Shown: piece after piece, positions 15,665 to 44,467 of the stretch | Layout: every line of letters starts with the position of its first letter | Position numbering within the stretch: the first letter of the stretch is position 1 | Assembly (NCBI GenBank): GCA_964532665.1 | Contig: CAZHMV010000002.1 | Span: 84,679-148,678 of the forward strand | Direction of reading: 5' to 3' | Length of the DNA: 64,000 bases | Source of the DNA: an uncultured Anaerolineales bacterium | GTDB taxonomy: Bacteria > Chloroflexota > Anaerolineae > Epilineales > JAANWY01 | The notes under the pieces: generated by a model | Seen by the model: only the letters and a program-made list of their open reading frames with translations | The model's database searches: none | What the model was told of the DNA's origin: nothing | Made by a program: the position numbers and the translations under genes

Positions 15665-15786
15665 GTTACTGCTCAGCCACCCTCCCGCAGGTTGCGGTGC
15701 GCAGTGGTTTTGCATCCGAAAAACGGCCTTGAAGCAGCGGTTCTCGGCCAGAGAGGCTTCAAACCTGCGGGAGGGTGAGTAGCTAC
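15665..15786. mobile_element. MITE-like element: perfect 15-bp internal IR and ACTACTCAG-type ends
   Basis: accctcccgcaggtt (15679-15693) and aacctgcgggagggt (15762-15776). Outer ends are gttactgctca and tgagtagctac. Confidence 0.6.
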
Positions 15787-15886
15787 GAGGTAAGCGTTCA
15801 GGGATAACTCAAGGAGCATCCCGAGTAGGCCGAGACGAAGTCGAGGCCGTATCGAGGGGTGCGGCTTACGCTACGAGTTGTAAACG

Positions 15887-16750
15887 ATGCTGGTTACCTG
15901 GAAGTATCGCGAACGAGACACGATCATCCAGCGCCTGGACCCCCGGGCGCGGATTATCTTCATGCTGTGTGCTTTCTTCAGCATCATTCAGTTCTGGGAC
16001 CTGCGCTTCCTGTTGGGATTTCTGGTTCTGGCTCTGGCCCAGATGGCGCTGGCACGGTTGGGATGGCGGGAAACGCGACGGTTCTGGCTGTTCATCACCG
16101 TGATCGCCTTTGCCCTGTCACTCATGACGGCACTGACCGGCCGGGGTGGAGTGGGGGTGTATGCTCAGGAGCATACCCTCTGGCGGGGTGAGTTCCATCT
16201 GCTGGGGGCGACCTTCGCTCTGGCCGTCAGCGCCGAACGCCTGACGTTCATGGTGGCGCAAATTGTGCGCATCTTTTCCTTCGCCGCGCTGGCCGTGGTC
16301 ATTCCCTACACCATTCACCCGGCTCGTTACGGGATCACCTTCCGCCGGCTGGGGGTGCCCGACAAGTTCGCCTTCGCCATGGACCTGGCCTTCCGCTTCA
16401 TCCCATCCCTGGGCCAGGATTTCCAGATGACCCTAGACGCCCAGCGGGCGCGGGGCTACGAGCTGGAGCGCATCGGCGGTGGGATCATCCGGCAGATTCG
16501 CAACATGGCTCCCCTGCTGATTCCGGTCACCATCGGCGCTATTGTGCGGGGTGAGGAGGTCATCGATGCCATGGACCTGCGCGCGTTCGGCACCGGACCG
16601 CGTACCTGGCTGGAGGAGTTGCACTACACCCCTCGGGACTACGCCCTGACCGTGTTCAGCGTCCTGTTGCTCCTGGGATCGACGGTACTCCACCTGTTAG
16701 GCTACGGTGGCTTCTGGGTGCCGGCGTGGCTGTTGGCCCTGGCCCGGTGA
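15887..16750 (+). CDS. ecfT: ECF transporter transmembrane T component
   Basis: LDPRARI start, LAFRFIP, AQRARG and AMDLRAF coupling motifs. Confidence 0.92.
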   Translation: MLVTWKYRERDTIIQRLDPRARIIFMLCAFFSIIQFWDLRFLLGFLVLALAQMALARLGWRETRRFWLFITVIAFALSLMTALTGRGGVGVYAQEHTLWRGEFHLLGATFALAVSAERLTFMVAQIVRIFSFAALAVVIPYTIHPARYGITFRRLGVPDKFAFAMDLAFRFIPSLGQDFQMTLDAQRARGYELERIGGGIIRQIRNMAPLLIPVTIGAIVRGEEVIDAMDLRAFGTGPRTWLEELHYTPRDYALTVFSVLLLLGSTVLHLLGYGGFWVPAWLLALAR

Positions 16751-17276: not shown

Positions 17277-17344
17277 ACGTGAAACGTAAAGCGTGAAGAT
17301 CGGTGCAGTCCCCGTTCCTCACGTTTCACGTTTTACGTTTCACG
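17277..17344. repeat. Tandem 7-mer inverted hairpin (ACGT(G/A)AA / TT(T/C)ACGT)
   Basis: Between lysW and lysX. A related copy lies at 43542-43624. Confidence 0.75.
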
Positions 17345-17385
17345 CCTTCTCAAACCTCATTCTGGTCTTGAAAAGGAGCGTGTCC

Positions 17386-18330
17386 ATGCGCATAGGTATT
17401 CTACATTCTAGAATCCGGCTCGAAGAGAAGCTGATCCTGCAGGAATTGGATCGGCGCGGTCTCAACTACGACATGATCGATGTGCGCCGGATCGTGTTCA
17501 ATCTCCACGAGAACGGGTGGGCCGATTATGACGTGATTCTGGAGCGCTGCGTCAGCCACTCGCGGGCCTTGTCGGCGCTGCGCATCCTGGATGCCTGGGG
17601 CGTGCCCACGGTCAACCCCTTCCAGGTGGGCGAGGTCTGTGGCGACAAGCTGAATACATCCCTGGCGCTGATCCAGGCCGGCGTGCCCACCCCCCGCGTC
17701 GAGATCGCCTTTACCCCCGAATCCGCTCTGGAAGCCATCGAGCGGTTGGGCTACCCCGTTGTCCTGAAGCCGGCGGTCGGCTCGTGGGGCCGGCTGTTGG
17801 CCCGCGTCAACGACCGCGACGCCGCCGAAGCCCTGCTGGAGCACAAGTCCACCCTGGGATCGTACCACCACTCCATCTACTACATCCAGGACTACGTTGA
17901 TAAGCCCGGCCGCGACATCCGCAGCTTTGTCGTCGGCGATGAGACGATCTGCGCCATCCTGCGGGAGTCGCAGCACTGGATCACCAACACCGCCCGAGGG
18001 GGTCGCGCCAGCAACTGTCCGGTGACACCCGAAATCGATGCACTTTCTCGGGCTGCTGCTCGGGCCGTGGGAGGCGGCATTGTGGCCGTGGACATCCTGG
18101 AGAGTCCCGACGGGGAGTTGCTGGTGAACGAAGTTAACTACACCATGGAATTCCGCAACAGCATCGAGCCGACGGGGGTGGACATTCCGGCGAAGATTGT
18201 GGATTATGTGGTGGCTGTGGGGGAGGGGCGACAGGAGTTCGGAGAGCGTCGGGAACTCGGGGGAACTCGGGGGAACTCGGGGGAACTGGCGGTGCCGGCG
18301 CAGGGTGTGGAGGAGAGCGGGCGTGGTTAG
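17386..18330 (+). CDS. lysX: LysW-alpha-aminoadipate ligase (ATP-grasp)
   Basis: [36 protein letters not shown]. Start ATG 17386 with SD aaggag. C-terminal tail [12 protein letters not shown] is repeat-encoded. Confidence 0.95.
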
Positions 18331-19348
18331 GGCGAGCATTGTGGGGGGGTCGGGGTATGCCGGCGGTGAGCTGTTGCGGTTGCTGCTGAGACACCCCGAG
18401 GTGGAAGTGCAGCAGGTGACGTCGGAGCGGTACGCCGGTCGCTACGTCCACAGTGTGCACCCCAACCTGCGGGACCAGACGCGGCTGCAGTTCAGCCGAC
18501 TGGAACAGCTTGAACCCTGCGATCTGCTCTTCCTGGCGCTGCCCCACGGTCAGGCAGCCCGGCAAATCGACCACTTCGCCACGCTCGCCGACCGCATCAT
18601 CGACCTGTCGGCCGATTTTCGGCTGCGCGATGCCGGCGCGTACCAGCGCTGGTACGGTGCGGAGCACCCCGCCCCGGCATGGCTCGACCGGTTCGTGTAC
18701 GGGCTGCCCGAAGTGTACCGCGGCGAGCTTCGCGACGCCCACTACGCCAGCGGCGTCGGTTGCAACGCCACGGCGGTCAACCTGGCCCTGTGGCCCCTGG
18801 CCCGCGCGGGTCTCATCGAGTGCGTGGTAGCTGAGGTGAAGGTCGGTTCGTCCGAGGCCGGCAACAAGCACAGCCTGGCCTCCCACCACCCGGAGCGCAG
18901 CGGCGCGGTCCGCTCCTTCGCCCCCACCGGCCACCGCCATCAGGCCGAGATGCAGCAGGTGTTGGGCGATTTCGAGCTGCACTTTTCGGCCACGGCTGTC
19001 GAGTTGGTGCGCGGCGTCCTGTGTACGGCTCACTGTTTCCTGCGGGAAGACTTGCAGGAACGCGATCTCTGGAAGCTTTACCGCGGGGCATACAACGACG
19101 AGCCCTTCATCCGCATTGTCAAGGATCGAACCGGCGTGTACCGCTACCCGGAGCCCAAGGTCCTGGCCGGCACCAATTTCTGCGACGTGGGTTTCGAGCG
19201 CGATCCCGACTCGAACCGCGTCGTGGTCATCAGCGCGCTGGACAACCTGGTGAAGGGCGCGGCCGGCAGTGCTGTCCAGTCAATGAATGTGATGATGGGG
19301 TGGGGGGAGACGACGGGGTTGGAGTTTGTGGGGCTGCATCCGGTGTAA
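18323..19348 (+). CDS. lysY: LysW-aminoadipyl-phosphate reductase (ArgC family)
   Basis: [25 protein letters not shown] catalytic Cys, [12 protein letters not shown] start overlaps the lysX end. Confidence 0.93.
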
Positions 19349-19403
19349 TGCGTCTTACGTCTTACGTCTTACGCAGTACGCAAGACGTAAGACGCAAGAC
19401 GCA
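19349..19403. repeat. Tandem 7-mer inverted hairpin (CGTCTTA / (T/C)AAGACG)
   Basis: Fills most of the lysY-lysZ spacer. Confidence 0.8.
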
Positions 19404-19420
19404 ATGGAGGAAATAGGGAC

Positions 19421-20236
19421 ATGATCGTTGTGAAGGTTGGCGGCAGCGCAGGCATCAATCTCGACGCTGTGTGCGCTGATGTCGCATCTCTCGTGCAGGC
19501 GGGTCAGCGACTCATCCTGGTCCACGGCGGGTCACACCAGACGAATGAGGTGGCCGAGAAGTTGGGGCATCCACCCCGGTTTGTGACGTCGCCGTCGGGC
19601 TACACCAGCCGGCGCACCGACCGGCGCACCCTGGAGATTTTCGAGATGGTCTACTGCGGCCAGATCAACAAGGGTGTCGTCGAGCGGCTGCAGCAGCACG
19701 GTGTGAACGCCGTCGGGCTGTCGGGCATCGACGGGCGCATCTGGGAGGGCCGGCGCAAGAAGGCAATCCGCATCGTGGAAAACGGCAAGACGTTGATCGT
19801 GCGCGATGACTACACGGGGGTCGTCGAGCGAGTCAACACTGGATTGCTCCAGACCCTGCTCGATGCCGGCTACCTGCCGGTGCTGACGCCGCCGGCCATC
19901 AGCTTCGAGGGCGAGGCCATCAACGTGGACGGCGACCGCGCCGCTGGCGCCACCGCCATCGCATTCGGGGCCGAGGCTTTGCTTCTGCTTTCCAACGTAC
20001 CAGGCCTGCTGCGCAACTTCCCCGACGAGAGCAGCCTGATTCGCCACATCTCCGGCGACGAGATCGAAGCTGCGGCCAAACACGCCGAAGGCCGCATGCG
20101 CATGAAACTCCTGGGCGCCCGCGAAGCGCTGGCCGGCGGCGTGGGGCGGGTGATCCTGGGGGATGCGCGGGTGGAGCAGCCGGTGAGACGGGCGTTGGCG
20201 GGGGAGGGAACAGTTATTGGAACTCAGGGGAACTGA
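19421..20236 (+). CDS. lysZ: LysW-aminoadipate kinase (ArgB family)
   Basis: IVVKVGGS, LVHGGS, INVDGDRAA, GRMRMKL. Confidence 0.93.
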   Translation: MIVVKVGGSAGINLDAVCADVASLVQAGQRLILVHGGSHQTNEVAEKLGHPPRFVTSPSGYTSRRTDRRTLEIFEMVYCGQINKGVVERLQQHGVNAVGLSGIDGRIWEGRRKKAIRIVENGKTLIVRDDYTGVVERVNTGLLQTLLDAGYLPVLTPPAISFEGEAINVDGDRAAGATAIAFGAEALLLLSNVPGLLRNFPDESSLIRHISGDEIEAAAKHAEGRMRMKLLGAREALAGGVGRVILGDARVEQPVRRALAGEGTVIGTQGN

Positions 20237-20317
20237 GAGGAACTCAAGGGAACTTGGCCAACAATGACTGTGGGCTTCTCTCAAGTTCTGCTGAGTTCCC
20301 CCGAGTTCCTCTGAGTT
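20218..20317. repeat. GGAACTC-family tandem ~10-mer inverted hairpin
   Basis: ggaactcaggggaactgagaggaactcaagggaact ... gagttccccgagttcctctgagtt. Overlaps the lysZ stop. Confidence 0.75.
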
Positions 20318-20337
20318 GCCCTTTTTCGGGATCTGCA

Positions 20338-21507
20338 ATGAAACCAAACATGGACGTGATCGAATTGGAACGGCAGTTTACCAGCGGTGTGTATCCCAAA
20401 CGGGACGTCGCCATCGTGCGGGGTGAGGGTACGCGGGTTTGGGACGCTGAGGGACAGGAGTATATCGACTGTGTGGGCGGGCATGGGGTTGCGAATCTCG
20501 GGCACTGCCATCCGAAGGTTGTCGAGGCCATCGCGCAGCAGGCGCGGACGCTGATCACATGCCCCGAGGTGTTCTACAACGACCGGCGGGCGGAGCTGCT
20601 GAGCCGGCTGTCGGCCCGCCTGCCCGACGGCTTGAACCGCATTTTCCTGTGCAACTCGGGTGCTGAGGCCGTCGAGGGGGCCATCAAGTTTGCGCGTCTG
20701 AGCACGGGCCGGCCCGGCATCGTCGCCACCATGCGCGGCTTTCACGGTCGCACTCTGGGCGCCCTGTCGGCAACGTGGGAGCGCAAGTATCGGGAGCCGT
20801 TCGAGCCGTTGGTGCCGGCCTTCTCTCACGTTCCGTTTAACAACCTGGACCGGATGGCGCAAGCTGTGAGCGACGACACAGCAGCGGTCCTGGTCGAAAT
20901 CGTCCAGGGCGAGGGGGGGGTGCGACCCGGGTCAGCAGAGTACTTCCAGGGGCTGCGGAAGTTGTGCGACGAACGGGGCGTGTTGCTCATCGTCGATGAG
21001 GTGCAGACCGGCTTCGGGCGAACCGGTCGCTGGTTTGCGGTAGAGCATGCCGGCATCATCCCCGACCTGATCTGTCTGGGCAAGGCAATTGCCGGCGGAG
21101 TGCCCATGGGGGCCGTGGCCATCGGGCCGGCGGTGGCCGAGCTGCCGGCCGGAACCCACGGTTCGACCTTCGGTGGCAATCCGCTGGCCTGCGCTGCCGC
21201 CGTCGCCGCCCTGGAAGCCTACGCGCGCGAAAGCCTGATCCAGCGCTCGGCCGAGATGGGGAGGTATCTGCTCGACCGGCTGCAGACCATCGAGTCGCCG
21301 TTGATCCGTGAGGTGCGGGGCCTGGGGCTGATGGTCGGCATCGAGCTCAAGACGCGAGTGACGCCGGTGCTGCAAGGCTTGATGGAGCGGGGGGTGCTGG
21401 CGCTGCCGGCGGGTCCAACGGTGCTGCGGCTGTTGCCGCCGCTGGTGATCAGCCGTGAGGAGATCGAGACGGTGATTCGCGCTATTGATGCCACCCTGCG
21501 TCAGTGA
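20338..21507 (+). CDS. lysJ: LysW-aminoadipate semialdehyde aminotransferase (class III PLP)
   Basis: CNSGAEAVEGAIK, GFHGRT, DEVQTGFGRTG, GKAIAGG, HGSTFGGNP. Start at ATG 20338 or 20350. Confidence 0.92.
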   Translation: MKPNMDVIELERQFTSGVYPKRDVAIVRGEGTRVWDAEGQEYIDCVGGHGVANLGHCHPKVVEAIAQQARTLITCPEVFYNDRRAELLSRLSARLPDGLNRIFLCNSGAEAVEGAIKFARLSTGRPGIVATMRGFHGRTLGALSATWERKYREPFEPLVPAFSHVPFNNLDRMAQAVSDDTAAVLVEIVQGEGGVRPGSAEYFQGLRKLCDERGVLLIVDEVQTGFGRTGRWFAVEHAGIIPDLICLGKAIAGGVPMGAVAIGPAVAELPAGTHGSTFGGNPLACAAAVAALEAYARESLIQRSAEMGRYLLDRLQTIESPLIREVRGLGLMVGIELKTRVTPVLQGLMERGVLALPAGPTVLRLLPPLVISREEIETVIRAIDATLRQ

Positions 21508-21594
21508 TCAGTGATCAGTAATCAGTATTCAGATTCTCATTACTGACCACTGATCACTGTTTACTGTTGACTGATCACTGATCACTGATCACTG
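21501..21594. repeat. Tandem 7-mer inverted hairpin (TCAGTGA / TCACTGA)
   Basis: Fills the lysJ-lysK spacer. The first units supply the lysJ stop codon. Confidence 0.8.
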
Positions 21595-21615
21595 AGACTT
21601 AGAACTGAGGACCAA

Positions 21616-22674
21616 ATGGATGCCGTTGAGCTTCTGCGACGGATGTTGGAAATCGAGAGCCTGTCGGGCCAGGAGGGCGAGTTGGCCGAGTTCCTTGTGG
21701 AGCGGATGGCCGGCTGGGGGTTTGATGCGCGCGTGGACGAGGCTGGCAATGCTGTCGGCGTGGTGGGCGATGGCCCCAACGAGATTGTGCTGCTGGGCCA
21801 TATCGACACGGTGCCGGGGCGGATTCCGGTTCGGATCGAGGGTGAGCGACTGTACGGACGGGGAGCGGTGGATGCGAAGGGACCGATGGCGGCCTTCGTT
21901 GTCGCAACCGCGCAAGCCGGCCCGCTGCCGGGCACGCGGGTCATCGTTGTTGGCGCCACCGAAGAGGAGGCGGCTACCTCGAAGGGGGCGCGCTTCGCCG
22001 TTGAGCGATATCGGCCTGCGTTCTGCGTCATCGGCGAGCCCAGCGGCTGGGATAGCATCACGCTGGGCTACAAGGGCCGGCTGCTTATCAACTACCGGCT
22101 GGAACGCTCCATGGGCCACACCGCCGGCCCCGAGGGGGGCGTGGCCGAGGAGGCGGTGGCCTGGTGGCAGGCGCTCAAGGCCAGGGCCGAAGCCTTCAAT
22201 GCTGAGCACAACAGCGCCTTCAGCCAACTGTTGCCATCCCTGCGAAACATTGTCACCCACAGCGATGGGCTGACCAATTCAGTTGAAGCCACTGTCGGGA
22301 TTCGGCTGCCACTCGACTATGACGCCAGCGCACTGGAGCGCGCTGCTCGTGAGCTGGCCGGCGACGCCCGGGTCCGCTGCTACAGCTACGAGCCGGCCTT
22401 TCGCGCCTCGAAGAACACGCCGCTGGTGCGCGCCTTTCTGCGAGCCATCCGCGCCGAAGGTGGCCGGCCCACATTCAAGTTGAAGACCGGTACGTCGGAC
22501 ATGAACGTCGTCGGACCGGTGTGGAACTGCCCCATCGTCGCCTACGGTCCGGGCGATTCCAGCCTGGACCACACGCCGAATGAGTACATTGAGATTGCGG
22601 AGTACCTGCGGGGGATTGAGGTACTTCAGCGAGCGTTGGATTTGTTGGTCGAACAGGAACTCGGAGGAACATAG
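21616..22674 (+). CDS. lysK: LysW-lysine hydrolase (M20 family)
   Basis: LLGHIDTVPG, GRGAVDAKG, ATEEE, GTSDMN, YGPGDSSLDHTPNE. Confidence 0.93.
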   Translation: MDAVELLRRMLEIESLSGQEGELAEFLVERMAGWGFDARVDEAGNAVGVVGDGPNEIVLLGHIDTVPGRIPVRIEGERLYGRGAVDAKGPMAAFVVATAQAGPLPGTRVIVVGATEEEAATSKGARFAVERYRPAFCVIGEPSGWDSITLGYKGRLLINYRLERSMGHTAGPEGGVAEEAVAWWQALKARAEAFNAEHNSAFSQLLPSLRNIVTHSDGLTNSVEATVGIRLPLDYDASALERAARELAGDARVRCYSYEPAFRASKNTPLVRAFLRAIRAEGGRPTFKLKTGTSDMNVVGPVWNCPIVAYGPGDSSLDHTPNEYIEIAEYLRGIEVLQRALDLLVEQELGGT

Positions 22675-22738
22675 GGGAACTCAGGGAAGCCAGGGGATCT
22701 TGAGTTCCCCCGAGTTCCCCTGAAATCCTCCGAGTTCC
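22655..22738. repeat. GGAACTC-family inverted hairpin
   Basis: ggaactcggaggaacataggggaactcaggg ... gagttcccccgagttcccc. Overlaps the lysK end. Confidence 0.7.
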
Positions 22739-22773
22739 CGCTGCGCAAGTTCTCCCATGTAAAGGAGCTAACC

Positions 22774-23922
22774 ATGAGTCTAGAGAACTTCTCAATCATC
22801 GAGTCTACCCTGCGCGAGGGTGAGCAATTCGTAAATGCTTTCTTCACGACGGAGCAGAAGATCCAGATTGCCCGGTTGCTGGACGAGTTCGGGGTCGAGT
22901 ATCTGGAGCTGACATCGCCGCTGGCGTCGCCCCAGAGTCGGGAGGACTGCACGACCATCGCCGGCCTGGGTCTGCGCGCCAGGATTCTCACCCACACGCG
23001 GTGTCACCTGAAGGATGCCCAGATCGCCGTCGAGACCGGCGTGGATGGCGTGGATGTGGTCATCGGTACCTCATCATACCTGCGGGAATTCAGCCACGGC
23101 AAGAGCATTGACCAGATCGTCGATCTGGCGCGCGACGTGGTGGCATACCTCCAGGAACAGGGCGTCATCGTGCGCTTCAGCACCGAGGACAGCCTGCGCA
23201 GCAATCCCGAGGACCTTTTCCGCGTCTACGAGGCAGTGGACGAACTGGGCGTGGATCGGGTGGGGGTTGCCGACACAGTGGGCGTCGGCACGCCGCGCCA
23301 GATCTACGCTCTGGTGAGCGAGCTGAGGCAGCGGGTGAAGTGCGACATCGAGTTCCACGGGCACAACGACTCCGGCTGTGCCATCGCCAACAGTTATGCC
23401 GCACTGGAGGCCGGCGCGACTCACATCGACACCAGCGTGCTCGGCATCGGCGAGCGAAATGGCATCACGCCGCTGGGGGGCCTGGTCGCCCGGCTCTTTG
23501 CCACCGACCCGAAGCTGGTGGAGAAGTACAACCTGCCCGTCATCCGCGATCTCGACCGGCTGGTGGCCGATTTGGTTGACGTAGACATCCCGTTCAACAA
23601 CTACATCACGGGGTTTTCGGCTTTCACGCACAAGGCCGGCATCCACGCCAAAGCCGTCCTGAACCACCCCTCGACCTACGAGATTCTAAAGCCCGAGGCC
23701 TTCGGGCTGACACGCTACATCCACATCGCCCACCGGCTAACCGGCTGGAACGCTGTTCGCCACCGCGCTGAGCAGCTCGGTCTGGAGCTGGACGACGATC
23801 AGGTGAAGCATCTGACGGCTCACATTAAAGCCCTGGCCGACGAGCGCGCATTGACCCTGGACGACGTGGATGCGCTGCTCCACCACTGGGCAGATGGCAA
23901 AGCAGAAGAGCAAGGGACCTGA
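22774..23922 (+). CDS. hcs: Homocitrate synthase
   Basis: [41 protein letters not shown] (DRE-TIM fold, Thermus/fungal HCS-like). Confidence 0.92.
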
Positions 23923-23933: not shown

Positions 23934-24380
23934 CTAGCTGAGCCCTTCTTCGATCAATGTCCGGACAGCCTGCACGAACTCGGCCGGTGTCTCGATTCTC
24001 AGTCCACTCTCCTCTGCTACTTGAACTGGCTTGATGAAGTCTTTGACATCCAGGGTCAGAAAACGGTCGGGGGCGGCTGTCACTGCTGCTGCAAGGATGG
24101 GGGCGTCCTTGGGATCGATCACAGATTCCCAGTGAACGACCTCCTCGCTGCTCGGATCGGGGACAATCTCGGGACCAATGGCTGCCATTAACTCTGCGAA
24201 GACGGGGAGAGCTGCCGGCAATTTCTTGCGCAAGTTGCGCTCAGTTTCGTCAAGGACCTGTCGGGAGACAACCAGCCGGTACAAACCAATCTCGGCCATG
24301 GTCAGCACGGCGCGACTGGCACCGGTGCGTGAGCCTGCACCGGCTACTAGAACGGTGGCGTCAGCGAAGACCCTGGTCAC
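23934..24380 (-). CDS. PIN-domain putative toxin (VapC-like)
   Basis: RVFADATVL, ETERNL, DPKDAPILAAA, LTLDVKDF acidic PIN residues. Confidence 0.85.
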   Translation of the reverse strand: MTRVFADATVLVAGAGSRTGASRAVLTMAEIGLYRLVVSRQVLDETERNLRKKLPAALPVFAELMAAIGPEIVPDPSSEEVVHWESVIDPKDAPILAAAVTAAPDRFLTLDVKDFIKPVQVAEESGLRIETPAEFVQAVRTLIEEGLS

Positions 24381-24699
24381 GGGTTGTCTTCTCCTGACGG
24401 GCCCACCGTTCCTGATAAATTGCCGCTCGTTCTTCCTTCAACCCAATCAGCAAGTCAGCCAGAGTTACGCCTTCCGCTTCCATCAACTCCACAATCCGAT
24501 CTGCCAGCAGAGGTACAACGGGCCGTTTCGGGGTAAGCAGCAGGGTCGAACCCACCTGGACAAGCGCTAGCGTATCGCCATCCCTCATATTCAATTGCTT
24601 GCGCACTTCTTGTGGCACCGTGATCTGGCCTCGCTGCCGCAGACGGACGTCATACGTTTTCAGAGAGGTAACTTCGCCCGACACTTGCGCAGTAGTCAT
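24361..24699 (-). CDS. AbrB/MazE-type antitoxin
   Basis: VRLRQRGQITVPQEVRKQLNMRDGD swapped-hairpin motif. Overlaps the PIN gene start. Confidence 0.85.
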   Translation of the reverse strand: MTTAQVSGEVTSLKTYDVRLRQRGQITVPQEVRKQLNMRDGDTLALVQVGSTLLLTPKRPVVPLLADRIVELMEAEGVTLADLLIGLKEERAAIYQERWARQEKTTRDQGLR

Positions 24700-27684: not shown

Positions 27685-27843
27685 TTGGAGTCAACTGGTA
27701 TCGCAAAGTTCTGGCTGGAGCCGATTGTTGCCCTGGCCAGGTTCCACAATTTGAAAACCAAGGATCTGCGCAAGATTGAGGCAATCGTCAAGGAGCACGA
27801 GGATGATTTCAGAGATGCCTGGCGCCGCCATTTCTTACAGTGA
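27685..27843 (+). pseudogene. 5'-truncated DUF4160-family gene
   Basis: AKFWLEPIVALARFHNLKTKDLRKIEAIVKEHEDDFRDAWRRHF matches the C-terminal half. An in-frame TAA lies just upstream and the N-terminal HxH motif is absent. Confidence 0.65.
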
Positions 27844-28063
27844 AGTGACAAACATTGGAGCGACCGGTTTTTGGCTGTTGGTTGATGACAAGGAATATTT
27901 CGTTCCTTTTGACGACTACCCGGTTTTCTGGGATGCAACGGTAGCTCAAATCTACGCAGTTCAGCGTCTGGGTCCCACGCAGTTTCACTGGCCGGAGTTG
28001 GACGCCGATATCGAATTGGAGGCCCTGGAATATCCGGAGCGATTTCCCCTGGTGTTCCGGTGA
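27815..28063 (+). CDS. DUF2442-family protein
   Basis: GFWLLVDDKEYFVPFDDYP.F...FHWPELDADIELE. Usual partner of DUF4160. Confidence 0.75.
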   Translation: MPGAAISYSEVTNIGATGFWLLVDDKEYFVPFDDYPVFWDATVAQIYAVQRLGPTQFHWPELDADIELEALEYPERFPLVFR

Positions 28064-28133: not shown

Positions 28134-28586
28134 ATGGACACTTTGCACGCTGAAGGCAGCATACTCGTCAATCACTCCGCCGGCGACGTCTTTGAGTTTC
28201 TCTGCAATCCGCACGTCGATCCGGCCGAGCTGACGCCGTTTGAAGATCGGGTAACGGAGCGCAGCGAGACGCCCGGCGTCGGCGCCGTGCTCCGGACAAC
28301 GGTAGAACTCGCGGCACGTGAACTGGATTGCCTGGCGCGATGCGTCGAGTTCGAGCCTCCACACCGGCTGGCCATGCGTTTGGAAGGTGATCTGGAAGGA
28401 ACGCAGACCTGGTGCCTGTCGCCGGAAGGGACGGGCACCGTCGTTCAACTGGACATCCGTATCGCCGCGCCGGAGTGGCTGCCGGCCTACCTGCGGGATG
28501 AGACGGCGGCGTCCCGCTGGACACAGATGTTGGTTGACCAGACGCTGGAAAACGTCAAGACAGCCCTGGAGCCAGCCGACGAATGA
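28134..28586 (+). CDS. SRPBCC/polyketide cyclase-like protein
   Basis: EGSILVNHSAGDVFEFL...VEFEPPHRL...LENVKTALE pattern. Confidence 0.75.
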   Translation: MDTLHAEGSILVNHSAGDVFEFLCNPHVDPAELTPFEDRVTERSETPGVGAVLRTTVELAARELDCLARCVEFEPPHRLAMRLEGDLEGTQTWCLSPEGTGTVVQLDIRIAAPEWLPAYLRDETAASRWTQMLVDQTLENVKTALEPADE

Positions 28587-29584
28587 GCTGGTTTGAGCAA
28601 GTACCCAAGGTCGAACTCCACCTGCACCTGGAGGGCGCAATTCCCCACGACGCCCTGTGGGAGCTGATTCAGAAATACGGCGGGGACCCGTCGGTGCCTG
28701 ACCTGCCGGCCCTGGAGCGGCAGTTCGAGTATCGGGACTTCCCGCACTTCATCGACACCTGGGTGTGGAAAAACCGGTTTCTGCGGGAATACGAGGACTT
28801 CACGTTCATCGCCGAAGCGGTAGCACGGGACCTGGCGTGCCAGAACATCTGCTACGCCGAGGCCTTCTACTCCCCGCCGGACTTCACCCGCCACGGCCTG
28901 GAGACCGGGAAGCTCACCGAAGCGATCCGCGCCGGCCTGGCTCGCGTCCCGGACATCGAAATCGCACTGGTGGCCGACCTGGTGCGCGACTTCGGGCCGG
29001 AGCGCGCCGCCGGCACCCTGGCAGAGGTGAGCGAGGTGCAGGACCTGGGCGTGATCGGCGTCACTATCGGCGGGTCGGAGCAGGATGTTCCGCCAGAGCC
29101 CTTCGAGGCGGTCTACGAGGAGGCACGGCACTTCGGGTTTCACACCAGCGCCCATGCCGGCGAGGCTGCGGGAGCCGAAAGCATCTGGGAGGCCATTCGC
29201 ACGCTGCGGGTGGAGCGCATCGGCCACGGCACTCGCGCCTGGGAGGACGAATCCCTGCTCGACTACCTGGCAGAGCACGGTATCCCGCTGGAGATGTGCC
29301 CCGTATCCAACGTGCGGACCGGCGTGGTGCGCTCCCTCGACGAACATCCCGTGCGCAGCTACTTCGAGCGCGGGATCGTCGTTACCATCAACACCGACGA
29401 CCCCAGGATGTTTGGCAACTCCCTGGCCGGGGAGTTCCGGCTCCTCGAAGAACGCCTGGGCTTCTCCCGCGATGACATCCGCACGCTGATTCTCCAGGGC
29501 GTCCAGGCGTCCTGGCTGGCGGAAGACCGGAAGCAGAAGCTGATCGAAGCGTTCCGCAGCCATCCGGCCTGGCCGGCGGCGTAA
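28583..29584 (+). CDS. add: Adenosine/adenine deaminase
   Basis: PKVELHLHLEG, AHAGE, RIGHG, LEMCPVSN, INTDDP. Confidence 0.9.
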   Translation: MSWFEQVPKVELHLHLEGAIPHDALWELIQKYGGDPSVPDLPALERQFEYRDFPHFIDTWVWKNRFLREYEDFTFIAEAVARDLACQNICYAEAFYSPPDFTRHGLETGKLTEAIRAGLARVPDIEIALVADLVRDFGPERAAGTLAEVSEVQDLGVIGVTIGGSEQDVPPEPFEAVYEEARHFGFHTSAHAGEAAGAESIWEAIRTLRVERIGHGTRAWEDESLLDYLAEHGIPLEMCPVSNVRTGVVRSLDEHPVRSYFERGIVVTINTDDPRMFGNSLAGEFRLLEERLGFSRDDIRTLILQGVQASWLAEDRKQKLIEAFRSHPAWPAA

Positions 29585-29622
29585 CCGTGCAGCGAAGCCG
29601 TGCCTCAAACGGACAGTTTTCT

Positions 29623-29693
29623 CCCACGGATAGAAAGAAACACGGATAGAATCTAAGTTTCTCTGTTTTCATCCGTGTTTCTTTCTATCCGTG
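29623..29693. repeat. CACGGAT/ATCCGTG inverted tandem hairpin after add (possible terminator)
   Basis: ccacggatagaaagaaacacggat ... atccgtgtttctttctatccgtg is a near-perfect long stem. Confidence 0.7.
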
Positions 29694-29937
29694 AGGAAAA
29701 CCTGTTTGGGATGCTCCGTGGGCTATCCCTGGACGCCTGCCCGGCTGCTGCTTGAGCGATGGTAAGGCAGCGACGCCCCCACCAGTCCTATTCCATGGGA
29801 CCAAACTTGGACCTGTTTTTGACTTGCGTGTGCCCAACTTTGTGGTATACTTGAGACAAACAAACGCCCGTTAGTCTGCGGCCCATTCGAGCAACGTTTC
29901 GGCAGTTGAAACTGCACCAACGTCTGCGAAGCATGTC

Positions 29938-30045
29938 CTAAGCCTGCCGAAGGATCTCCCTTGGGCGACTGGTTGGTCTTCAGCCGGCGAAGGCCGGCTT
30001 CGCGAGGGTTGCCGCGATTTCAATCGCCAGGCTGAGTAGCTACGT
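29938..30045. repeat. Palindromic/REP-like composite element
   Basis: cctaagcctgccgaagg (reverse CTTCGACAGGCTCAGG type), gccggcgaaggccggc hairpin, gcgatttcaatcgc, and end ggctgagtagctac. Resembles 12390-12450. Confidence 0.55.
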
Positions 30046-30094
30046 CACTGCTACACACTCCTCGGGCGGGTGCCGGCGACAACGGGAAATGTTG

Positions 30095-30240
30095 CATCGT
30101 TTCAGCGCACACCCAGATCGCTTTACACTTTTGCTCGCGCTGGACAACAGTCCAGCGCTCCGAAACGCTTTGGAAGCTGCCGGACTGTTGTCCGGCAGGA
30201 GCAAATTGTAAAGCCAAGTTCCCCTTACGGTGAAACGATG
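30095..30240 (+). other. ~145-nt nested inverted repeat in the PAL leader
   Basis: CATCGTTTCA/TGAAACGATG, GCTTTACA/TGTAAAGC, TTTGCTC/GAGCAAA and GGACAACAGTCC/GGACTGTTGTCC. Confidence 0.7.
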
Positions 30241-30285
30241 CCGGAAATGTCGAAGTCCTCCAAAACCGAAAGGAGATAGAATCCA

Positions 30286-31983
30286 ATGGCCGACACGACT
30301 TCTGAACTAGCCTTCTCCCAACCGTCGCCCGACGTCGTGACCATGGACGGCGCAGTCGTCCTGGACGGCGCGGGCTTAACCATCGATGAGATCGTTCGCG
30401 TAGCGCGCCATCACGCGCGCGTGCGCATTGCCAATGACGACACGATCACCCGGCGTATCCTGGCCTCGCACGACTACGTGACGAACGCCGTCGAAGCCGG
30501 CCAGGCCATTTACGGCGTGACAACTGGCTTTGGCGGCATGGCCAGCAAGGTGATTACCGTCGAAAACGCGACCGAGTTGCAGAACAATCTGATCTGGTTC
30601 ATGAAAACCGGCGCCGGCCGGCGCATCCCTACCGCCGACGTGCGCGCCGCGATGCTCCTGCGCATCAATTCCCACCTGCGGGGCGCTTCTGGCCTGCGGT
30701 TGGAGCTGATTCGACGGATGGAGACGTTCCTGAACGCCGGCGTCACACCTCACGTGCACGAATATGGCTCCATCGGCGCCAGTGGTGACCTGGTGCCCCT
30801 GGTCAGCATCACCGGCGCGCTGATCGGCCTGGACCCCAGCTTCACAGTCGATTACAACGGCCAGGAGCTGGATGCACTGACGGCCCTGGATCGGCTCGGG
30901 CTGTCCCCCATGCGTCTGGGTCCCAAGGAAGGACTTGCCATGGTCAACGGCACGTCGGTGATGACCGGTATTGCTGCCAACAACGTGTATGATGCGCGCA
31001 TTCTCCTCGCGCTGTCCATGGGCGCGCATGCGCTGGCCATTCAGGCGCTGCGCGGAACCAACCAATCGTTCCACCCATTCATCCACGACAACAAGCCGCA
31101 CCCGGGCCAGAGGTGGGCCGCCGCCCGCATGCTGGACCTGTTGGCCGGCTCCAGGCTGGTACGCGACGAGCTGGATGGCCGGCACGACTACCGCAACGGC
31201 GACCTGATTCAGGATCGCTACTCGCTGCGCTGCCTGCCCCAGTACGCCGGTCCCATCGTTGACGGACTCGCCCAGATTGCGCGGCAGGTTGAAGTCGAAG
31301 CCAATTCAGCCACGGACAACCCGTTGATCGACCCCGAGACGCAGGTGAGCTTCCATGGTGGCAATTTCCTGGGGCAGTACATTGGTGTGGCGATGGACCA
31401 ACTGCGCTACTACATTGGCCTGCTGGCCAAGCACCTGGATGCCCAGATTGCGCTGCTGGTGGCACCGGAGTTCAGCAACGGGCTGCCGCCGTCCCTCATC
31501 GGCAATCCCGACCGCGAGGTGAACATGGGGCTCAAGGGCTTGCAGATCACCGGCAACTCCCTCATGCCGCTGCTGACCTTCTTCGGCAACTCGCTGGTCG
31601 ATCACTTCCCGACCCATGCCGAGCAGTTCAACCAGAACATCAACAGCCAGGGGTATGGTTCGGCCAACCTGGCGCGCCAGTCCATCGAAATCTTCCAGCA
31701 GTACATGGCAGTTGCGCTGATGTTTGGCGTACAGGCGGTCGATCTGCGGACGCACGTGGTGGCCGGCCACTACGACGCCCGCGAGGTTCTGTCGCCGGCC
31801 ACATCGCGATTGTACGAAGCAGTGCGCCAGGTAGTCGATCATCCGCCATCGGCCGACCGGCCCTACGTGTGGAATGACAACGAGCAGCCGCTGGATGCCG
31901 ACATTGCGCGTATTGCGGCTGACATCGCTGCCGGCGGGCACATCCCCCAGGCGGTCAACGAGATCAGCCATCCAGCCATCTAA
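30286..31983 (+). CDS. pal: Phenylalanine ammonia-lyase, cyanobacterial (Anabaena/Nostoc) type
   Basis: MIO motif GSIGASGDLVPL; IYGVTTGFGG; specificity segment LQNNLIWFMKTGAG (Phe, not His); QDRYSLRCLPQY; HAEQFNQNINSQG. Collinear with Anabaena PAL as I recall it. Confidence 0.85.
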   Translation: MADTTSELAFSQPSPDVVTMDGAVVLDGAGLTIDEIVRVARHHARVRIANDDTITRRILASHDYVTNAVEAGQAIYGVTTGFGGMASKVITVENATELQNNLIWFMKTGAGRRIPTADVRAAMLLRINSHLRGASGLRLELIRRMETFLNAGVTPHVHEYGSIGASGDLVPLVSITGALIGLDPSFTVDYNGQELDALTALDRLGLSPMRLGPKEGLAMVNGTSVMTGIAANNVYDARILLALSMGAHALAIQALRGTNQSFHPFIHDNKPHPGQRWAAARMLDLLAGSRLVRDELDGRHDYRNGDLIQDRYSLRCLPQYAGPIVDGLAQIARQVEVEANSATDNPLIDPETQVSFHGGNFLGQYIGVAMDQLRYYIGLLAKHLDAQIALLVAPEFSNGLPPSLIGNPDREVNMGLKGLQITGNSLMPLLTFFGNSLVDHFPTHAEQFNQNINSQGYGSANLARQSIEIFQQYMAVALMFGVQAVDLRTHVVAGHYDAREVLSPATSRLYEAVRQVVDHPPSADRPYVWNDNEQPLDADIARIAADIAAGGHIPQAVNEISHPAI

Positions 31984-41212: not shown

Positions 41213-41755
41213 ATGCTCAAAGAACGCTCAACACTAGACCCACGCACCATCGCCCTCATCTCCATCATGACAGCGGTCACGATTGTGTTCACGCTGGCCG
41301 TGCGTGTGCCGTTCGCGCCGACGCGAGGTTACTTCACGCTGGCTGACGTGGGGGTGTATTTCACCGCCTTCGCCTTTGGTCCACTGATCGGGTTCATCGT
41401 CGGGGGACTGGGCACCGGCCTGGCCGATGTCCTGGGTGGATATGCCCACTTCGCTATCTGGTCGTTTCTGATCCACGGCTTTCAGGGGCTGGTGGCCGGC
41501 TACCTGGGCTATCGGCGGGGGTGGTCTGGCATGATCGCCGGCTGGTTGGCCGGCGCTGTGGTGATGATTGGCGGCTATTTTGCGGTGGAGTACTGGCTGG
41601 AAGGATTCGGACCGGCCGCCGGCGAGGCGACGACCGTCAACCTGCCCCAGGTTGCCATCGGCGGCCTGGTGGCTCTGGCCCTGCTCGTTGCCGTGCGCCG
41701 CGCCTATCCCCAGATCGACACATTCGCTCAACCGCGCAGATGGCGTGAAGGGTAG
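41213..41755 (+). CDS. ECF S component, HmpT/PdxU2-like (probable vitamin B6 vitamer)
   Basis: VPFAPTRGYFTLADVGVYFTAFAFGP..G.IVGGLGTGLADVLGGY pattern; directly behind the MocR regulator. Confidence 0.75.
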   Translation: MLKERSTLDPRTIALISIMTAVTIVFTLAVRVPFAPTRGYFTLADVGVYFTAFAFGPLIGFIVGGLGTGLADVLGGYAHFAIWSFLIHGFQGLVAGYLGYRRGWSGMIAGWLAGAVVMIGGYFAVEYWLEGFGPAAGEATTVNLPQVAIGGLVALALLVAVRRAYPQIDTFAQPRRWREG

Positions 41756-41763
41756 ACTCAGCC

Positions 41764-43554
41764 CTGATTCACGTTGACAACCTGCACTACAGTTATCCCC
41801 CGGTGATCCCCGGCGGCGATCCCGTGCCCGCCCTGCGCGGCATCGACCTGGAAATCGGGCGCGGCGAATTCGTCGCTGTGATGGGAGCAACCGGGGCCGG
41901 CAAGACCACGCTGTGCCTGGCTCTCACCGGTCTCGTACCCCATGCCACCGGTGGGATCATTCGCGGCGATGTCCGGGTAGAGGGCCGCAACACGAAACAG
42001 TGCAGCGTGGCTGACCTGGCAACCCTCGTCGGCCTTGTGTTCCAGGACTCTGAGAGCCAACTGTTCAACATGAGCGTGGAACAGGAAGCGGCGTTCGGGC
42101 CAGAGAGCCTGGGTCTGCCGGCGGGTGAGATCGAGCAGCGCATCGATTGGGCGCTGGAGGCCGTCGGGCTGTCTGAGCTCAGGCAGCGGTCGCCGGCTGC
42201 GTTGTCGGGTGGACAGCAACGCCGGCTGGCCATCGCCTCCGTGCTGGCCATGCGGCCGGCTCTGCTCGTCCTGGACGAACCGGTGGCCGGCCTCGACCCG
42301 CTGGGGCGTCAGGCTGTCCTGTCGGTGATCGCTGACCTGCGCCGGCAGGGAACCACGGTTCTCATGGCAACTCAGGACCCGGACACTGTCGCCGCGCTTG
42401 CCGATCGCGTGGTTGTTCTGGACGAAGGCCGGCTTGCCGTGGTTGGGACCCCGCGTGTGGTTTTCAGCCAGGTTGATCTCATGCACGCCCTCGGGCTGGA
42501 AGTCCCACAGGTGACCGAGGCCGGCTGGAAGTTGGGATGGGACCCGCTGCCGCTGACGTTGGAGGAAGCGGAAAAGAGGGGAACTCGGGGGAACTTGGGG
42601 GAACTTGGGGGAACTCAGGAGAACTCAGGGGAACTCAGGGGAACTCAGGGGAACTCAGGGGCATTGGACAACAAACTCCATGTTCCCCTGAATTCCCCCA
42701 AATTCCCCCGAGTTCCCCTGAGTTCGGGTTCTCCTTCCGTTCGCGTTGACGATCTCTGGTATCAGTACGACGGGGTTCAGGCATTGGCCGGGGCGACCTG
42801 TTCGTTCGAGGGCGGCGGGTTTGTGGCGCTGGTTGGGGCGAACGGGTCAGGGAAAACAACGCTGGCGAAGCACCTGAACGGTCTGTTGCTTCCTCAGCGT
42901 GGTCGGGTGGTCGTGCTGGGGGATGACACGCGGTCGCTGCCGGCCGGCGTTCTGGCACGTCGGGTGGGCTACGTGTTCCAGAATCCAGATCATCAGATCT
43001 TCGCGCCGTCGGTGCGCGACGAGGTGGCATTCGGCCCGCGCAATTTGGGGCTGCCGGCCGACGAAGTCGAGGCGCGCGTCGAGGCGGCCCTGGCGACTTT
43101 CGACCTGACCGATGTGGCGGCTGTGCCACCGGCAACGCTGGGCTACGGGACTCGCCGGCTGGTTGCTCTGGCATCTGTGCACGCGATGGATCCCGAAGTC
43201 CTGATCCTGGACGAGGCAACCGTCGGCCTGGATCGCCGGCTGGCGGGCCGGCTCATGGCATGGGCCGAAGAACGCCAGCGTCAGGGGGTCACGGTGATCA
43301 TGATCACCCACGACATGCGGCTGGTCGCCGAGCGCGCTCAGCGCTGCCTGGTCATGCGTGCCGGCCAGGTCCTGGCAAACGGCACGCCGGCCCAGGTCTT
43401 TGCTGACCCGACCAGCCTGACGACAGGCCTGAACCCGCCGCCGGTGTTTGAGCTGGGCCGGCGACTTGGCCTGTCTTCTCCAACATTGACCGTTGCCGAC
43501 TTCTGCACGCTCTATGCCGGCCGGCTGAAAGAAGACAGAGGACGTGAAACATAA
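41764..43554 (+). CDS. ECF fused dual ATPase with repeat-encoded linker insertion
   Basis: GATGAGKT and GANGSGKT Walker A motifs, LSGGQQRR. The frame extends upstream of the track start (41803) to CTG 41764 (IHVDNLHYSYP). Confidence 0.88.
   Translation: MIHVDNLHYSYPPVIPGGDPVPALRGIDLEIGRGEFVAVMGATGAGKTTLCLALTGLVPHATGGIIRGDVRVEGRNTKQCSVADLATLVGLVFQDSESQLFNMSVEQEAAFGPESLGLPAGEIEQRIDWALEAVGLSELRQRSPAALSGGQQRRLAIASVLAMRPALLVLDEPVAGLDPLGRQAVLSVIADLRRQGTTVLMATQDPDTVAALADRVVVLDEGRLAVVGTPRVVFSQVDLMHALGLEVPQVTEAGWKLGWDPLPLTLEEAEKRGTRGNLGELGGTQENSGELRGTQGNSGALDNKLHVPLNSPKFPRVPLSSGSPSVRVDDLWYQYDGVQALAGATCSFEGGGFVALVGANGSGKTTLAKHLNGLLLPQRGRVVVLGDDTRSLPAGVLARRVGYVFQNPDHQIFAPSVRDEVAFGPRNLGLPADEVEARVEAALATFDLTDVAAVPPATLGYGTRRLVALASVHAMDPEVLILDEATVGLDRRLAGRLMAWAEERQRQGVTVIMITHDMRLVAERAQRCLVMRAGQVLANGTPAQVFADPTSLTTGLNPPPVFELGRRLGLSSPTLTVADFCTLYAGRLKEDRGRET
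42577..42727. repeat. GGAACTC-family element inserted in frame in the ATPase linker
   Basis: About eight tandem ~10-mers (ggggaactc(a/g)/ggggaacttg) with an inverted arm; encodes GTRGNLGELGGTQENSGELRGTQGNSG...PLNSPKFPRVPLSS. Confidence 0.85.
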
Positions 43555-43624
43555 AACGTGAAACGTGAAGACTGGTCAGAGGGAGAAGCCATCACGTTTC
43601 ACGTTTTACGTTTCACGTTTCGCG
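43542..43624. repeat. Tandem 7-mer inverted hairpin (ACGTGAA family)
   Basis: acgtgaaacataaaacgtgaaacgtgaa ... tcacgtttcacgttttacgtttcacgtttcgcg. The right arm is nearly identical to that at 17319-17344. Confidence 0.8.
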
Positions 43625-43657
43625 CCGTTGTATTGAGTCGACAAAGTCCATAGCAGA

Positions 43658-44467
43658 ATGGCTATCACCACACCGATCTACGTCCACGGCAATTCCTGGC
43701 TTCACCAACTGGACCCGCGAGTGAAGTTGCTGTTCGCTGTTGGTGGGATGGCGACGATGTTAGCGCTCGGGAATCTGCCTGTGTTTCTGGTGTTCCTGGT
43801 CGTGTGCCACGTCCTGCTGTTGTTGGCCGGCGTGCCGGTGAGTCGGCTGGCATGGGCCTGGCGGTTGATGCTGCCGATCACCATCCTGATCCCGGTTCTG
43901 TGGCCCATTTTCTCCACCGCCGGCAGTTCCGTGCTCCTCAGGCTGGGTCCGATCACGGTCACAACGCTGGATGTGTGGCAGGGTCTGGCTATGGCAGCCC
44001 GGGTCGATGCCATGGCTTTTGCCTTTTTCGTGTGGCTGTTTACCACCGACCAGGAGTCGATGGTTGCGGGACTGGTCGGCCTGGGGATACCCTACGAGTG
44101 GGGGCTGGTGGTGGCCATTTCGCTGCGCTACGTGCCAACGCTGTACGAGTCGTTCCAGCGAGTGCTGGACGCCCAGCGGGCGCGGGGGCTGGTGATTCCG
44201 CGGTCAAATCCGGCGAAAGCGGCGCGAGCTTACCTGCCGGCCCTGGTAGCCACACTCATCGGGGCACTGCGCACAGCCGAGCACCTGTCGTGGGCCATGC
44301 AGGCGCGGGCATTCGGGGCAACGGGCCGGCAGCGGACCATCCGGCGGGAGTTGCGCTTCAGGCCGGCAGATGGGGTCGCGACGGCAGTGGTGGTTCTTGG
44401 GTTTGGAGCGGTTATCGTTGCGCGTGTCCTCTTCGGTTTTGGCCGGCTGCCGTTATCGCTGTTGTAA
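43658..44467 (+). CDS. ecfT: ECF T component
   Basis: LHQLDPRVKL, ISLRYVP, AQRARG, AMQARAF. Confidence 0.9.
   Translation: MAITTPIYVHGNSWLHQLDPRVKLLFAVGGMATMLALGNLPVFLVFLVVCHVLLLLAGVPVSRLAWAWRLMLPITILIPVLWPIFSTAGSSVLLRLGPITVTTLDVWQGLAMAARVDAMAFAFFVWLFTTDQESMVAGLVGLGIPYEWGLVVAISLRYVPTLYESFQRVLDAQRARGLVIPRSNPAKAARAYLPALVATLIGALRTAEHLSWAMQARAFGATGRQRTIRRELRFRPADGVATAVVVLGFGAVIVARVLFGFGRLPLSLL

Follow-up and report, generated by a model that had tools for sequence, protein, structure and literature searches.

How did a phenylalanine ammonia-lyase (PAL) of the cyanobacterial type come to be encoded in a bacterium that is not a cyanobacterium, and what might it do there? The question is raised by a gene on a 64-kb stretch of DNA, the whole of which is called the window here. 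The original prediction took this gene for a bacterial PAL acquired by horizontal exchange with cyanobacteria and offering a possibly useful natural variant. The drug pegvaliase has as its active ingredient the PAL of Anabaena (Trichormus) variabilis, AvPAL, whose surface cysteines had to be engineered out for this use; AvPAL is also a mainstay of biocatalysis. We put at roughly 0.8 the probability that the gene encodes a functional PAL (EC 4.3.1.24) of the type represented by AvPAL and by NpPAL of Nostoc punctiforme, that it has long been resident in Anaerolineae under a conserved promoter of its own, and that it belongs to a branch with a Phe-Met (F-M) selectivity pair and no adenylating or carrier partner.

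The gene and its family

The gene (Table 1) has a codon composition of the coding type (GC1/2/3 of 0.66/0.42/0.81), and its product matches Pfam PF00221 (Lyase_aromatic) with 492.9 bits against a gathering threshold of 27.3, over profile positions 1-466 of 466. Among the NCBIfam models the PAL equivalog TIGR01226 comes first with 399 bits, under its cutoff of 519. This shortfall is uninformative, because proven AvPAL also fails (402 bits, with the models ranked in the same order) and the cutoff defines the plant/fungal type. The HutH model TIGR01225 reaches 364 bits against a cutoff of 539, and the tyrosine ammonia-lyase (TAL) and aminomutase models FlxA, BagA, Tyr_2_3_mutase and Phe-mutase lie far under their cutoffs and below the PAL model. 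In a phmmer search of the PDB the closest solved structures are AvPAL (2nyn, E 1.6e-261) and NpPAL (2nyf, E 5.4e-259), followed at a distance by plant PALs and mutases (about 1e-81) and Pseudomonas HutH (about 1e-56). Branching with HutH had been named in the original prediction as a check on the assignment; the protein branches instead with AvPAL and NpPAL (1e-261 vs 1e-56), and the trees described below agree. Judged by its sequence, the open reading frame almost certainly encodes an Anabaena-type PAL.

Table 1. Features of the PAL locus, with positions counted from the first nucleotide of the window
Feature	Position	Strand	Remarks
Adenosine deaminase	28583..29584	+	Above TIGR01430 cutoff; upstream of PAL; adjacency kept in sister MAGs
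Conserved block, ~120 bp, with promoter-like TTGACT (29819) ... TGGTATACT (-10 at 29846-29851)	29755..29870	+	Kept in two sister Anaerolineae MAGs
Unusually long leader, ~428 nt from putative start to ATG	29872..30269	+	~50 nt in the closest MAG (L005)
Shine-Dalgarno-like AAGGAG	30270..30275	+	10 nt 5' of the PAL ATG; read directly in the sequence
PAL coding sequence, 565 aa + stop	30286..31983	+	ATG start; AvPAL-type MIO-dependent ammonia-lyase; longest ORF there
Selectivity-pair codons, F105-M106 (AvPAL F107-L108)	30598..30603	+	From alignment to AvPAL
MIO-forming tripeptide codons, A165-S166-G167 (AvPAL 167-169)	30778..30786	+	Triad invariant in 199/199 clade members
V220 codon (AvPAL M222)	30943..30945	+	From alignment to AvPAL
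V501 codon (AvPAL C503; Ser in pegvaliase)	31786..31788	+	From alignment to AvPAL
P563 codon (collinear with AvPAL C565)	31972..31974	+	Variable tail, not alignable across the clade
HDIG-domain protein, 188 aa	32005..32571	+	21 nt downstream of PAL, co-directional

Residue-by-residue comparison with AvPAL

Both motifs on which the original prediction was built are present, the MIO tripeptide ASG at residues 165-167 and the segment NLIWFMKTG at residues 101-109. The string ASG occurs twice in the protein; the MIO copy is the one in GASGDL (residues 164-169), and the other, at 134-136, is incidental. The collinearity with AvPAL stated in the original prediction is borne out by an ungapped alignment of residues 22-560 to AvPAL 24-562 with 386 of 539 positions identical (71.6%), so that residue n of the protein corresponds to AvPAL n+2. 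Checked singly in this alignment, L108 is replaced by M106, M222 by V220 and C503 by V501, the last in a column that is anchored independently by the Cys of chain 2nyn and the Ser of the C503S/C565S chain 3czo. Weakest of these four mappings is that of C565 to P563, which falls in the variable C-terminal tail and is based on the agreement in length and on collinearity. All of the substitutions foreseen for these positions, including the lack of a Cys at either site mutated in the drug, are thereby found. Further differences from AvPAL include T102N and D306N. Only one Cys remains in the whole protein, C316, which is the invariant AvPAL C318; the other four of the five cysteines in the aligned part of AvPAL are replaced (Cys64, 235, 424 and 503 by H, N, T and V), as is Cys565 in the tail (by P), and the count is the lowest among 199 clade members, for which the median is 5.

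The active site is conserved to a far greater extent. We compared 24 residues (in AvPAL numbering Y78, F84, G85, L104, F107, the MIO triad, L171, G218, L219, N223, Q311, Y314, R317, N347, H359, F363, K419, I423, E448, N451, Q452 and N453) and found all of them identical, the sole exceptions among the contacts examined being L108M and M222V. A census of the 199 clade members (identity to the query of 66% or more), covering all of these residues except F84, G85, L104, L219, N347 and H359, found 16 of them to be invariant in 199/199 members, among them the MIO triad, the catalytic Tyr (Y78), Y314, R317, N223 and E448; I423 and G218 vary slightly. In the proposed mechanism, A165-S166-G167 would cyclise autocatalytically to give the MIO electrophile, and the substrate would be bound and deprotonated by Y76 (AvPAL Y78, on the inner loop), Y312 and R315. 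With F105, M106, L102, V220 and I421 forming a hydrophobic pocket for the aryl ring of Phe, the reaction would yield trans-cinnamate and ammonia.

Both pocket substitutions have been made in AvPAL in a deep mutational scan (10.1101/2021.06.06.447205), where L108M was confirmed to exceed the parental activity and M222V raised fitness, which its authors read as higher activity. The same study gives the natural frequencies: A, K, M, Q and T combined account for 18/998 homologs at position 108, so that Met is rare, and Val is the commonest residue at position 222 (469/998). Given the scan, these two differences are consistent with PAL activity, and may indeed be favourable to it.

Substrate selectivity

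Identity to AvPAL of 72% does not by itself fix the substrate, because specificity switches repeatedly within the AvPAL-like clade. Our own tree places F-L, Y-H and F-H pairs in alternation (that of F-L and Y-H also inside the cyanobacterial clade), and repeated PAL-TAL switches are likewise noted by Weise et al. (PMC5651878), in whose scheme Y-H and F-H pairs are TAL-like, F-L denotes PAL and S-H histidine ammonia-lyase (HAL). The main substrate might accordingly be something other than Phe, the enzyme acting on Tyr, His or another aryl amino acid, as a bifunctional PAL/TAL, or as an aminomutase. Besides the frequency of these switches, such a reading draws on an aryl pocket reshaped by M106 and V220, on a slow mutase-like activity of AvPAL itself (PMC6413883), and on the NCBI label of the closest relatives, "histidine ammonia-lyase." Measured against the 19-residue zymophore of Weise et al. 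(threshold 18/19; PMC5651878), the protein differs at position 7 (L108), and its score would fall to 17/19, under the threshold, if M222 belongs to the motif; the other pocket residues checked are identical.

We nevertheless regard a main substrate other than Phe as very unlikely. The pair F105-M106 retains Phe at position 107, as originally predicted, and has a hydrophobic residue at 108, so that neither position carries the His of the TAL-like pairs (H-L, Y-H or F-H) or of the S-H pair of HAL. Both L108M and M222V kept and raised Phe activity or fitness when introduced into AvPAL, and the HutH, TAL and mutase models score below the PAL model and far under their cutoffs. The window contains no hutU, hutI or hutG, the arginase-family gene 4.6 kb upstream of PAL being a bona fide rocF-type arginase and not hutG. 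The label "histidine ammonia-lyase" on the closest proteins, which come from metagenome-assembled genomes (MAGs), is thus probably a misnomer, and the reading of the gene as a Phe ammonia-lyase is retained in what follows.

Position 108 divides the clade. In the 199 members it is occupied by L in 83, H in 75 and M in 37, where L belongs to F-L pairs (the AvPAL type), H mostly to Y-H pairs and M to F-M pairs. The F-M pair is found in 9/22 non-cyanobacterial loci vs 0/58 cyanobacterial loci, its combination with V222 occurs in at least 20 database sequences, and a characterised F-M enzyme is apparently absent from the literature searched.

Host, phylogeny and the question of cyanobacterial transfer

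The host is not a cyanobacterium, in agreement with the original prediction. Every named match of the window's homocitrate synthase comes from Chloroflexota (Anaerolineae, Anaerolineales and Ardenticatena), and a LysW-type lysine cluster is present. Lysine biosynthesis of this kind is usual in Chloroflexota, Deinococcota and archaea, and is not known to be typical of cyanobacteria. Three MAGs labelled "Anaerolineae bacterium" carry the nearest PAL homologs, 85-91% identical, and in these sister MAGs the flanking genes for an SRPBCC protein, adenosine deaminase, HDIG protein and arginase are 87-89% identical to those of the window, with two genes further downstream at 64-73%. The GC content is 0.62 over the PAL gene and its flanks, and GC3, at 0.81, matches that of the neighbours. 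Taken together, the host-like GC and GC3, the shared synteny and the conserved upstream block argue that the gene is native to its Anaerolineae lineage. The IVYWREL proxy for growth temperature gives 55-68 C for the window, with mesophile control loci spread over 10-46 C, which hints weakly at thermophily of the host.

Relatives of the gene are present in 327 of 185,579 species-level genomes and are mostly cyanobacterial. The statement that bacterial PALs are uncommon thus stands when counted per genome, though hundreds of close homologs exist. Non-cyanobacterial relatives come from Chloroflexota (Anaerolineae, Caldilineaceae, Chloroflexia and Herpetosiphonaceae), Desulfobacterales, SAR324, Methylomirabilota and Scalindua, and a protein search added a homolog from Binatia. 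We built two trees, both by neighbour-joining only and rooted with representatives 35-63% identical, from a sample biased to the query in which several MAG taxon labels are dubious: one of 105 taxa with 200 bootstraps, and one of 208 taxa with 100 bootstraps from which three motif columns were taken out. The AvPAL-like clade has 96% bootstrap in the 105-taxon tree. In both trees the cyanobacterial sequences form a single clade (92-96% bootstrap), and the Anaerolineae PAL lies outside it, in a closely knit group with 100% support whose seven sequences are all F-M; the bootstraps of the non-cyanobacterial backbone are only 1-41%.

These results bear on the proposal that a horizontal exchange with cyanobacteria, of relatively recent date, brought the gene to its Chloroflexota host. 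The proposal is understandable, as identities of 66-76% across phyla are high for such an enzyme, at least six phyla are mixed in the clade, and the named matches are mostly cyanobacteria. Emiliani et al. (2009; PMC2657906), moreover, found Herpetosiphon (Chloroflexi) and Methylobacterium grouped with two cyanobacterial PALs, and read the heterogeneity of the group as horizontal gene transfer; owing to that grouping, a cyanobacterial-type PAL outside cyanobacteria is not new. Our literature search on PAL in Chloroflexi returned plant and rhizosphere papers only. Against a recent exchange, the single cyanobacterial clade leaves out the Anaerolineae group, whose nearest relatives beyond the sister MAGs (75-80% identical) are of the F-M type and non-cyanobacterial, and the F-M pair is wanting in every cyanobacterial locus sampled. 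Base composition is host-like, synteny and promoter are kept across MAGs that are about 10-15% diverged in protein, with flanks as diverged as the gene itself, and the AMP-binding gene that is the hallmark partner in cyanobacteria is absent. A recent exchange is therefore highly improbable, and this part of the original prediction is not supported in the form given. The tree topology, as far as it can be read from these sequences, does not support acquisition from cyanobacteria, and an ancient transfer between phyla somewhere within the clade, in either direction, is plausible. Long residence in Anaerolineae remains our preferred account.

Upstream region and neighbouring genes

A putative promoter region belongs to the PAL gene itself, to judge by the sequence of the conserved block upstream of it (Table 1), though a strict sigma-70 scan did not pick up the TTGACT...TGGTATACT pair. 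The leader that follows contains inverted repeats nested within one another, and one of its segments is related to other intergenic repeats. We considered it as a dedicated riboregulator and rejected the idea, since the sister MAGs are without it and it is made up in part of a dispersed intergenic repeat; the long leader is read as an insertion and not as a conserved element. An Rfam search of the 700-bp upstream gap gave "miRNA" matches below threshold, caused by a long hairpin, and one weak match to a CRISPR repeat, all judged to be chance, and over the whole window Rfam found one tRNA only.

The HDIG gene is possibly co-transcribed with PAL. It was rejected as a conserved functional partner, being linked in the closest MAG only and absent from the other loci. 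Two genes upstream of PAL lies the SRPBCC (Polyketide_cyc2) gene, whose 4-nt overlap with the adenosine deaminase gene places it with that gene; as a clue to a polyketide pathway it was set aside, its family also being generic. Genes that could supply a pathway are missing, as the original prediction had said of a CoA ligase or polyketide synthase (PKS) in adjacent positions: no AMP-binding/CoA ligase or PKS gene was found within 10 kb on either side or in the rest of the 64-kb window, nor any UbiD/UbiX or enoate reductase anywhere in it. A tblastn search of the window for remnants of an Lrp/AsnC regulator or of ligase, MaoC or SDR genes gave no match better than E 0.01, and the idea of such degraded genes was dropped. 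A partner gene for PAL is likewise absent in the sister MAGs.

The contexts of related genes are quite different. An AMP-binding gene adjoins 50 of the 58 cyanobacterial homologs (29/32 with F-L and 21/26 with Y-H), nearly always directly downstream and on the same strand. Its product is an adenylating enzyme, in some cases in the form of an A-T didomain, and the relatives include PAL-A-T, A-PAL and thioesterase-PAL fusions. This context is a starter-unit loading arrangement. An AMP-binding partner accompanies none of the nine F-M genome loci. Immediately upstream in seven F-M loci (L024, L085, L086, L088, L089, L090 and L092) is an Lrp/AsnC regulator, and immediately downstream in five of deltaproteobacterial type (L040, L041, L062, L067 and L091) is an alpha/beta-hydrolase; a further F-M locus, L087, has an adenine deaminase and a thioesterase. 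Among the F-M relatives an AMP-binding ligase occurs in L085 and L089 only. The ligase, MaoC and SDR genes of L085 make up a set resembling cinnamate beta-oxidation. In the seven-sequence group to which the Anaerolineae PAL belongs, none of the regulator, hydrolase and ligase neighbours of the other F-M genes is found.

Likely role

What the enzyme does for its host is a more tentative matter. It may act alone, releasing ammonia from Phe for the scavenging of nitrogen or amino acids beside arginase and adenosine deaminase, with the cinnamate excreted or handled by genes elsewhere; we offer this tentatively, from a loose gene neighbourhood. A biosynthetic role, in which the enzyme would provide cinnamate or benzoyl-CoA for a secondary metabolism encoded elsewhere in the genome, after the manner of EncP, StlA and the cyanobacterial PAL-A-T pairs, is a serious rival, though we think it rather unlikely. 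It would fit the dominant context of the clade, with an adenylating enzyme next to most cyanobacterial homologs and didomain partners or fusions among the relatives; the downstream ligase of two F-M relatives, with or without MaoC and SDR, could be counted in its favour, as could the SRPBCC gene two genes upstream. The attachment of that SRPBCC gene to the adenosine deaminase gene speaks against it, as do the lack of any such pathway gene within 64 kb and the sister MAGs that are also without a partner.

The scavenging role can be carried a step further, with more doubt. Among the AvPAL-like lyases the F-M enzymes might constitute a non-cyanobacterial subfamily that is distinct in function, whose adenylation/carrier partner was lost or never present, and whose members serve as catabolic deaminases, under Lrp/AsnC control or standing alone. 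The Anaerolineae PAL would then be a "pre-engineered" variant (L108M and M222V, a single Cys, possibly from a thermophile) that is more active and less prone to aggregation than AvPAL. We think this extended proposal unlikely as a whole. If true, it would reveal an under-appreciated PAL route in Chloroflexota, Desulfobacterota and their relatives, by which Phe is scavenged for nitrogen or broken down via cinnamate.

On the applied side, the suggestion of a useful natural variant holds insofar as L108M and M222V each raised the activity or fitness of AvPAL, but the F-M/V222 combination is shared with the other database sequences counted above. The two natural substitutions, the single Cys and the weak hint of thermophily are of modest applied interest. 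Because it unites two activity- or fitness-raising substitutions with freedom from the surface cysteines removed for the drug, the protein is a candidate that could be expressed and tested at little cost.

Comparison with known systems

AvPAL (PDB 2nyn, 3czo, 5ltm), with 567 aa against 565, is effectively equal in length to the Anaerolineae PAL and shares with it the MIO triad, all catalytic and carboxylate-binding residues checked, and Phe at the selectivity position. The two differ in host (Nostocales vs Chloroflexota) and in context, no adenylating gene being found downstream of the Anaerolineae PAL. NpPAL (2nyf) is likewise a full-length collinear match with differences of the same kinds, and falls inside the cyanobacterial clade that excludes the Anaerolineae PAL. 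The Chloroflexi and Methylobacterium homologs of Emiliani et al. (PMC2657906) are also non-cyanobacterial and uncharacterised and belong to the same bacterial PAL group; the Herpetosiphonaceae sequence that we sampled has a Y-H pair (TAL-like) and is only 66% identical to the Anaerolineae PAL. More distant is MxPAL, which is 50% identical to AvPAL (PMC5651878).

EncP of Streptomyces maritimus and StlA of Photorhabdus catalyse the same reaction with the same MIO chemistry from distant branches, and do so inside dedicated pathways (enterocin and stilbene, respectively; PMC2657906), whereas the Anaerolineae PAL is without pathway context. HutH of Pseudomonas putida (1gkm) belongs to the same PF00221 fold family and is matched at E 1e-56, but it has an S-H pair against F-M, and no hut genes lie near the PAL gene. 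Seen beside these systems, the Anaerolineae PAL is not evidence of recent cyanobacterial transfer but a natural, as yet uncharacterised variant of an enzyme already known, and the understanding of how PALs work is unchanged by it. The F-M subfamily without an adenylation partner is a modest lead for comparative genomics. Compared across loci, the split in gene context (adenylation and carrier functions in cyanobacteria; Lrp/AsnC regulators, hydrolases or no partner at all with F-M enzymes) hints that the same scaffold may have been put to two roles.

Genetic Surroundings of the PAL Gene

The unusually long leader upstream of the PAL start codon (29872-30269) contains repeat-like and inverted-repeat sequence, and a hairpin lies in the region preceding it. 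The near-perfect hairpin that follows the adenosine deaminase gene is AT-richer than the genome and is also present in the sister Anaerolineae MAG L031; in the closest one, L005, another long palindrome occupies the matching site. The miRNA matches that Rfam returned at this position are spurious and caused by the hairpin itself, and across the whole window no gathering-level Rfam match was obtained besides a tRNA gene. Because one leader segment resembles two other intergenic stretches at 75-89% similarity, the three together suggest, on sequence likeness, a small dispersed repeat family.

Features of the window
Feature	Position	Strand	Description
ECF-type transporter module 1	12593-16750		
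ECF-type transporter module 2	41213-44467		
LysW-type lysine biosynthesis cluster	17293-23922		alpha-aminoadipate type
DUF4160/DUF2442 gene pair and weak MazE-like antitoxin gene	27685-28063 and 24361-24699		small pair; coordinates converted from JGI gene calls
Hairpin	29613-29705		near-perfect; shortly 3' of adenosine deaminase stop; 35-nt arms, 23-nt perfect core
Repeat-like segment	29908-30032		PAL leader
Repeat-like segment	12272-12417	-	intergenic
Repeat-like segment	38768-38819	+	intergenic
Nested inverted repeat	30094-30107 with 30228-30241		PAL leader
Nested inverted repeat	30130-30156 with 30179-30205		PAL leader
tRNA gene	61598-61672	-	single; Rfam

The lysine cluster comprises genes for a LysX-like ATP-grasp protein, a semialdehyde dehydrogenase, an amino-acid kinase, a class-III aminotransferase, an M20 peptidase and a homocitrate synthase. 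Each ECF-type module combines a duplicated-ABC ATPase, an S component and a CbiQ-like T component, and the two lie less than 30 kb apart. The DUF4160/DUF2442 pair and the MazE-like gene are possibly toxin-antitoxin-like modules. Over the whole window, the IVYWREL fraction of 0.416-0.430 translates nominally into a growth optimum of 55-68 C, a proxy that is noisy at a sample size of 34-45 predicted proteins; this is the top of the range of the control loci, among which the cyanobacterial ones gave 10-46 C.

Relatives of the Window's PAL

Four homologous proteins (P0122, P0124, P0125 and P0136) carry PAL domains of 49-63% identity to the query fused with other domains, as PAL-A-T (adenylation and carrier; 1188 aa), A-PAL (1085 and 1322 aa) or thioesterase with PAL (789 aa). 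In two further proteins, P0123 (917 aa) and P0126 (2535 aa), the PAL domain is accompanied by additional regions to which no Pfam domain is assigned. Public records name AvPAL-like P0002 and P0004, the closest relatives, as well as P0040 and P0083 “histidine ammonia-lyase,” which is probably a misannotation given their clade membership and their F-M or F-L selectivity pair (AvPAL positions 107-108). The taxon labels of three binchicken MAGs (L012, L025, L058), “uncultured Enterobacteriaceae bacterium,” look unreliable, since their PAL homologs cluster with a Methylomirabilota sequence and their GC content is 55-58%.

Within the cyanobacterial AvPAL-like clade (loci L007-L084), PAL-type F-L and TAL-like Y-H pairs alternate repeatedly at about 70% identity, and an AMP-binding gene usually comes next after both types alike. 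Several of these cyanobacteria possess two PAL-like copies per genome, including Nostoc FACHB-892 (L017, L068), Atlanticothrix CENA357 (L030, L034) and Brasilonema UFV-L1 (L028, L042). PAL-TAL switches of this kind have already been recorded (Weise et al., 2017; PMC5651878).
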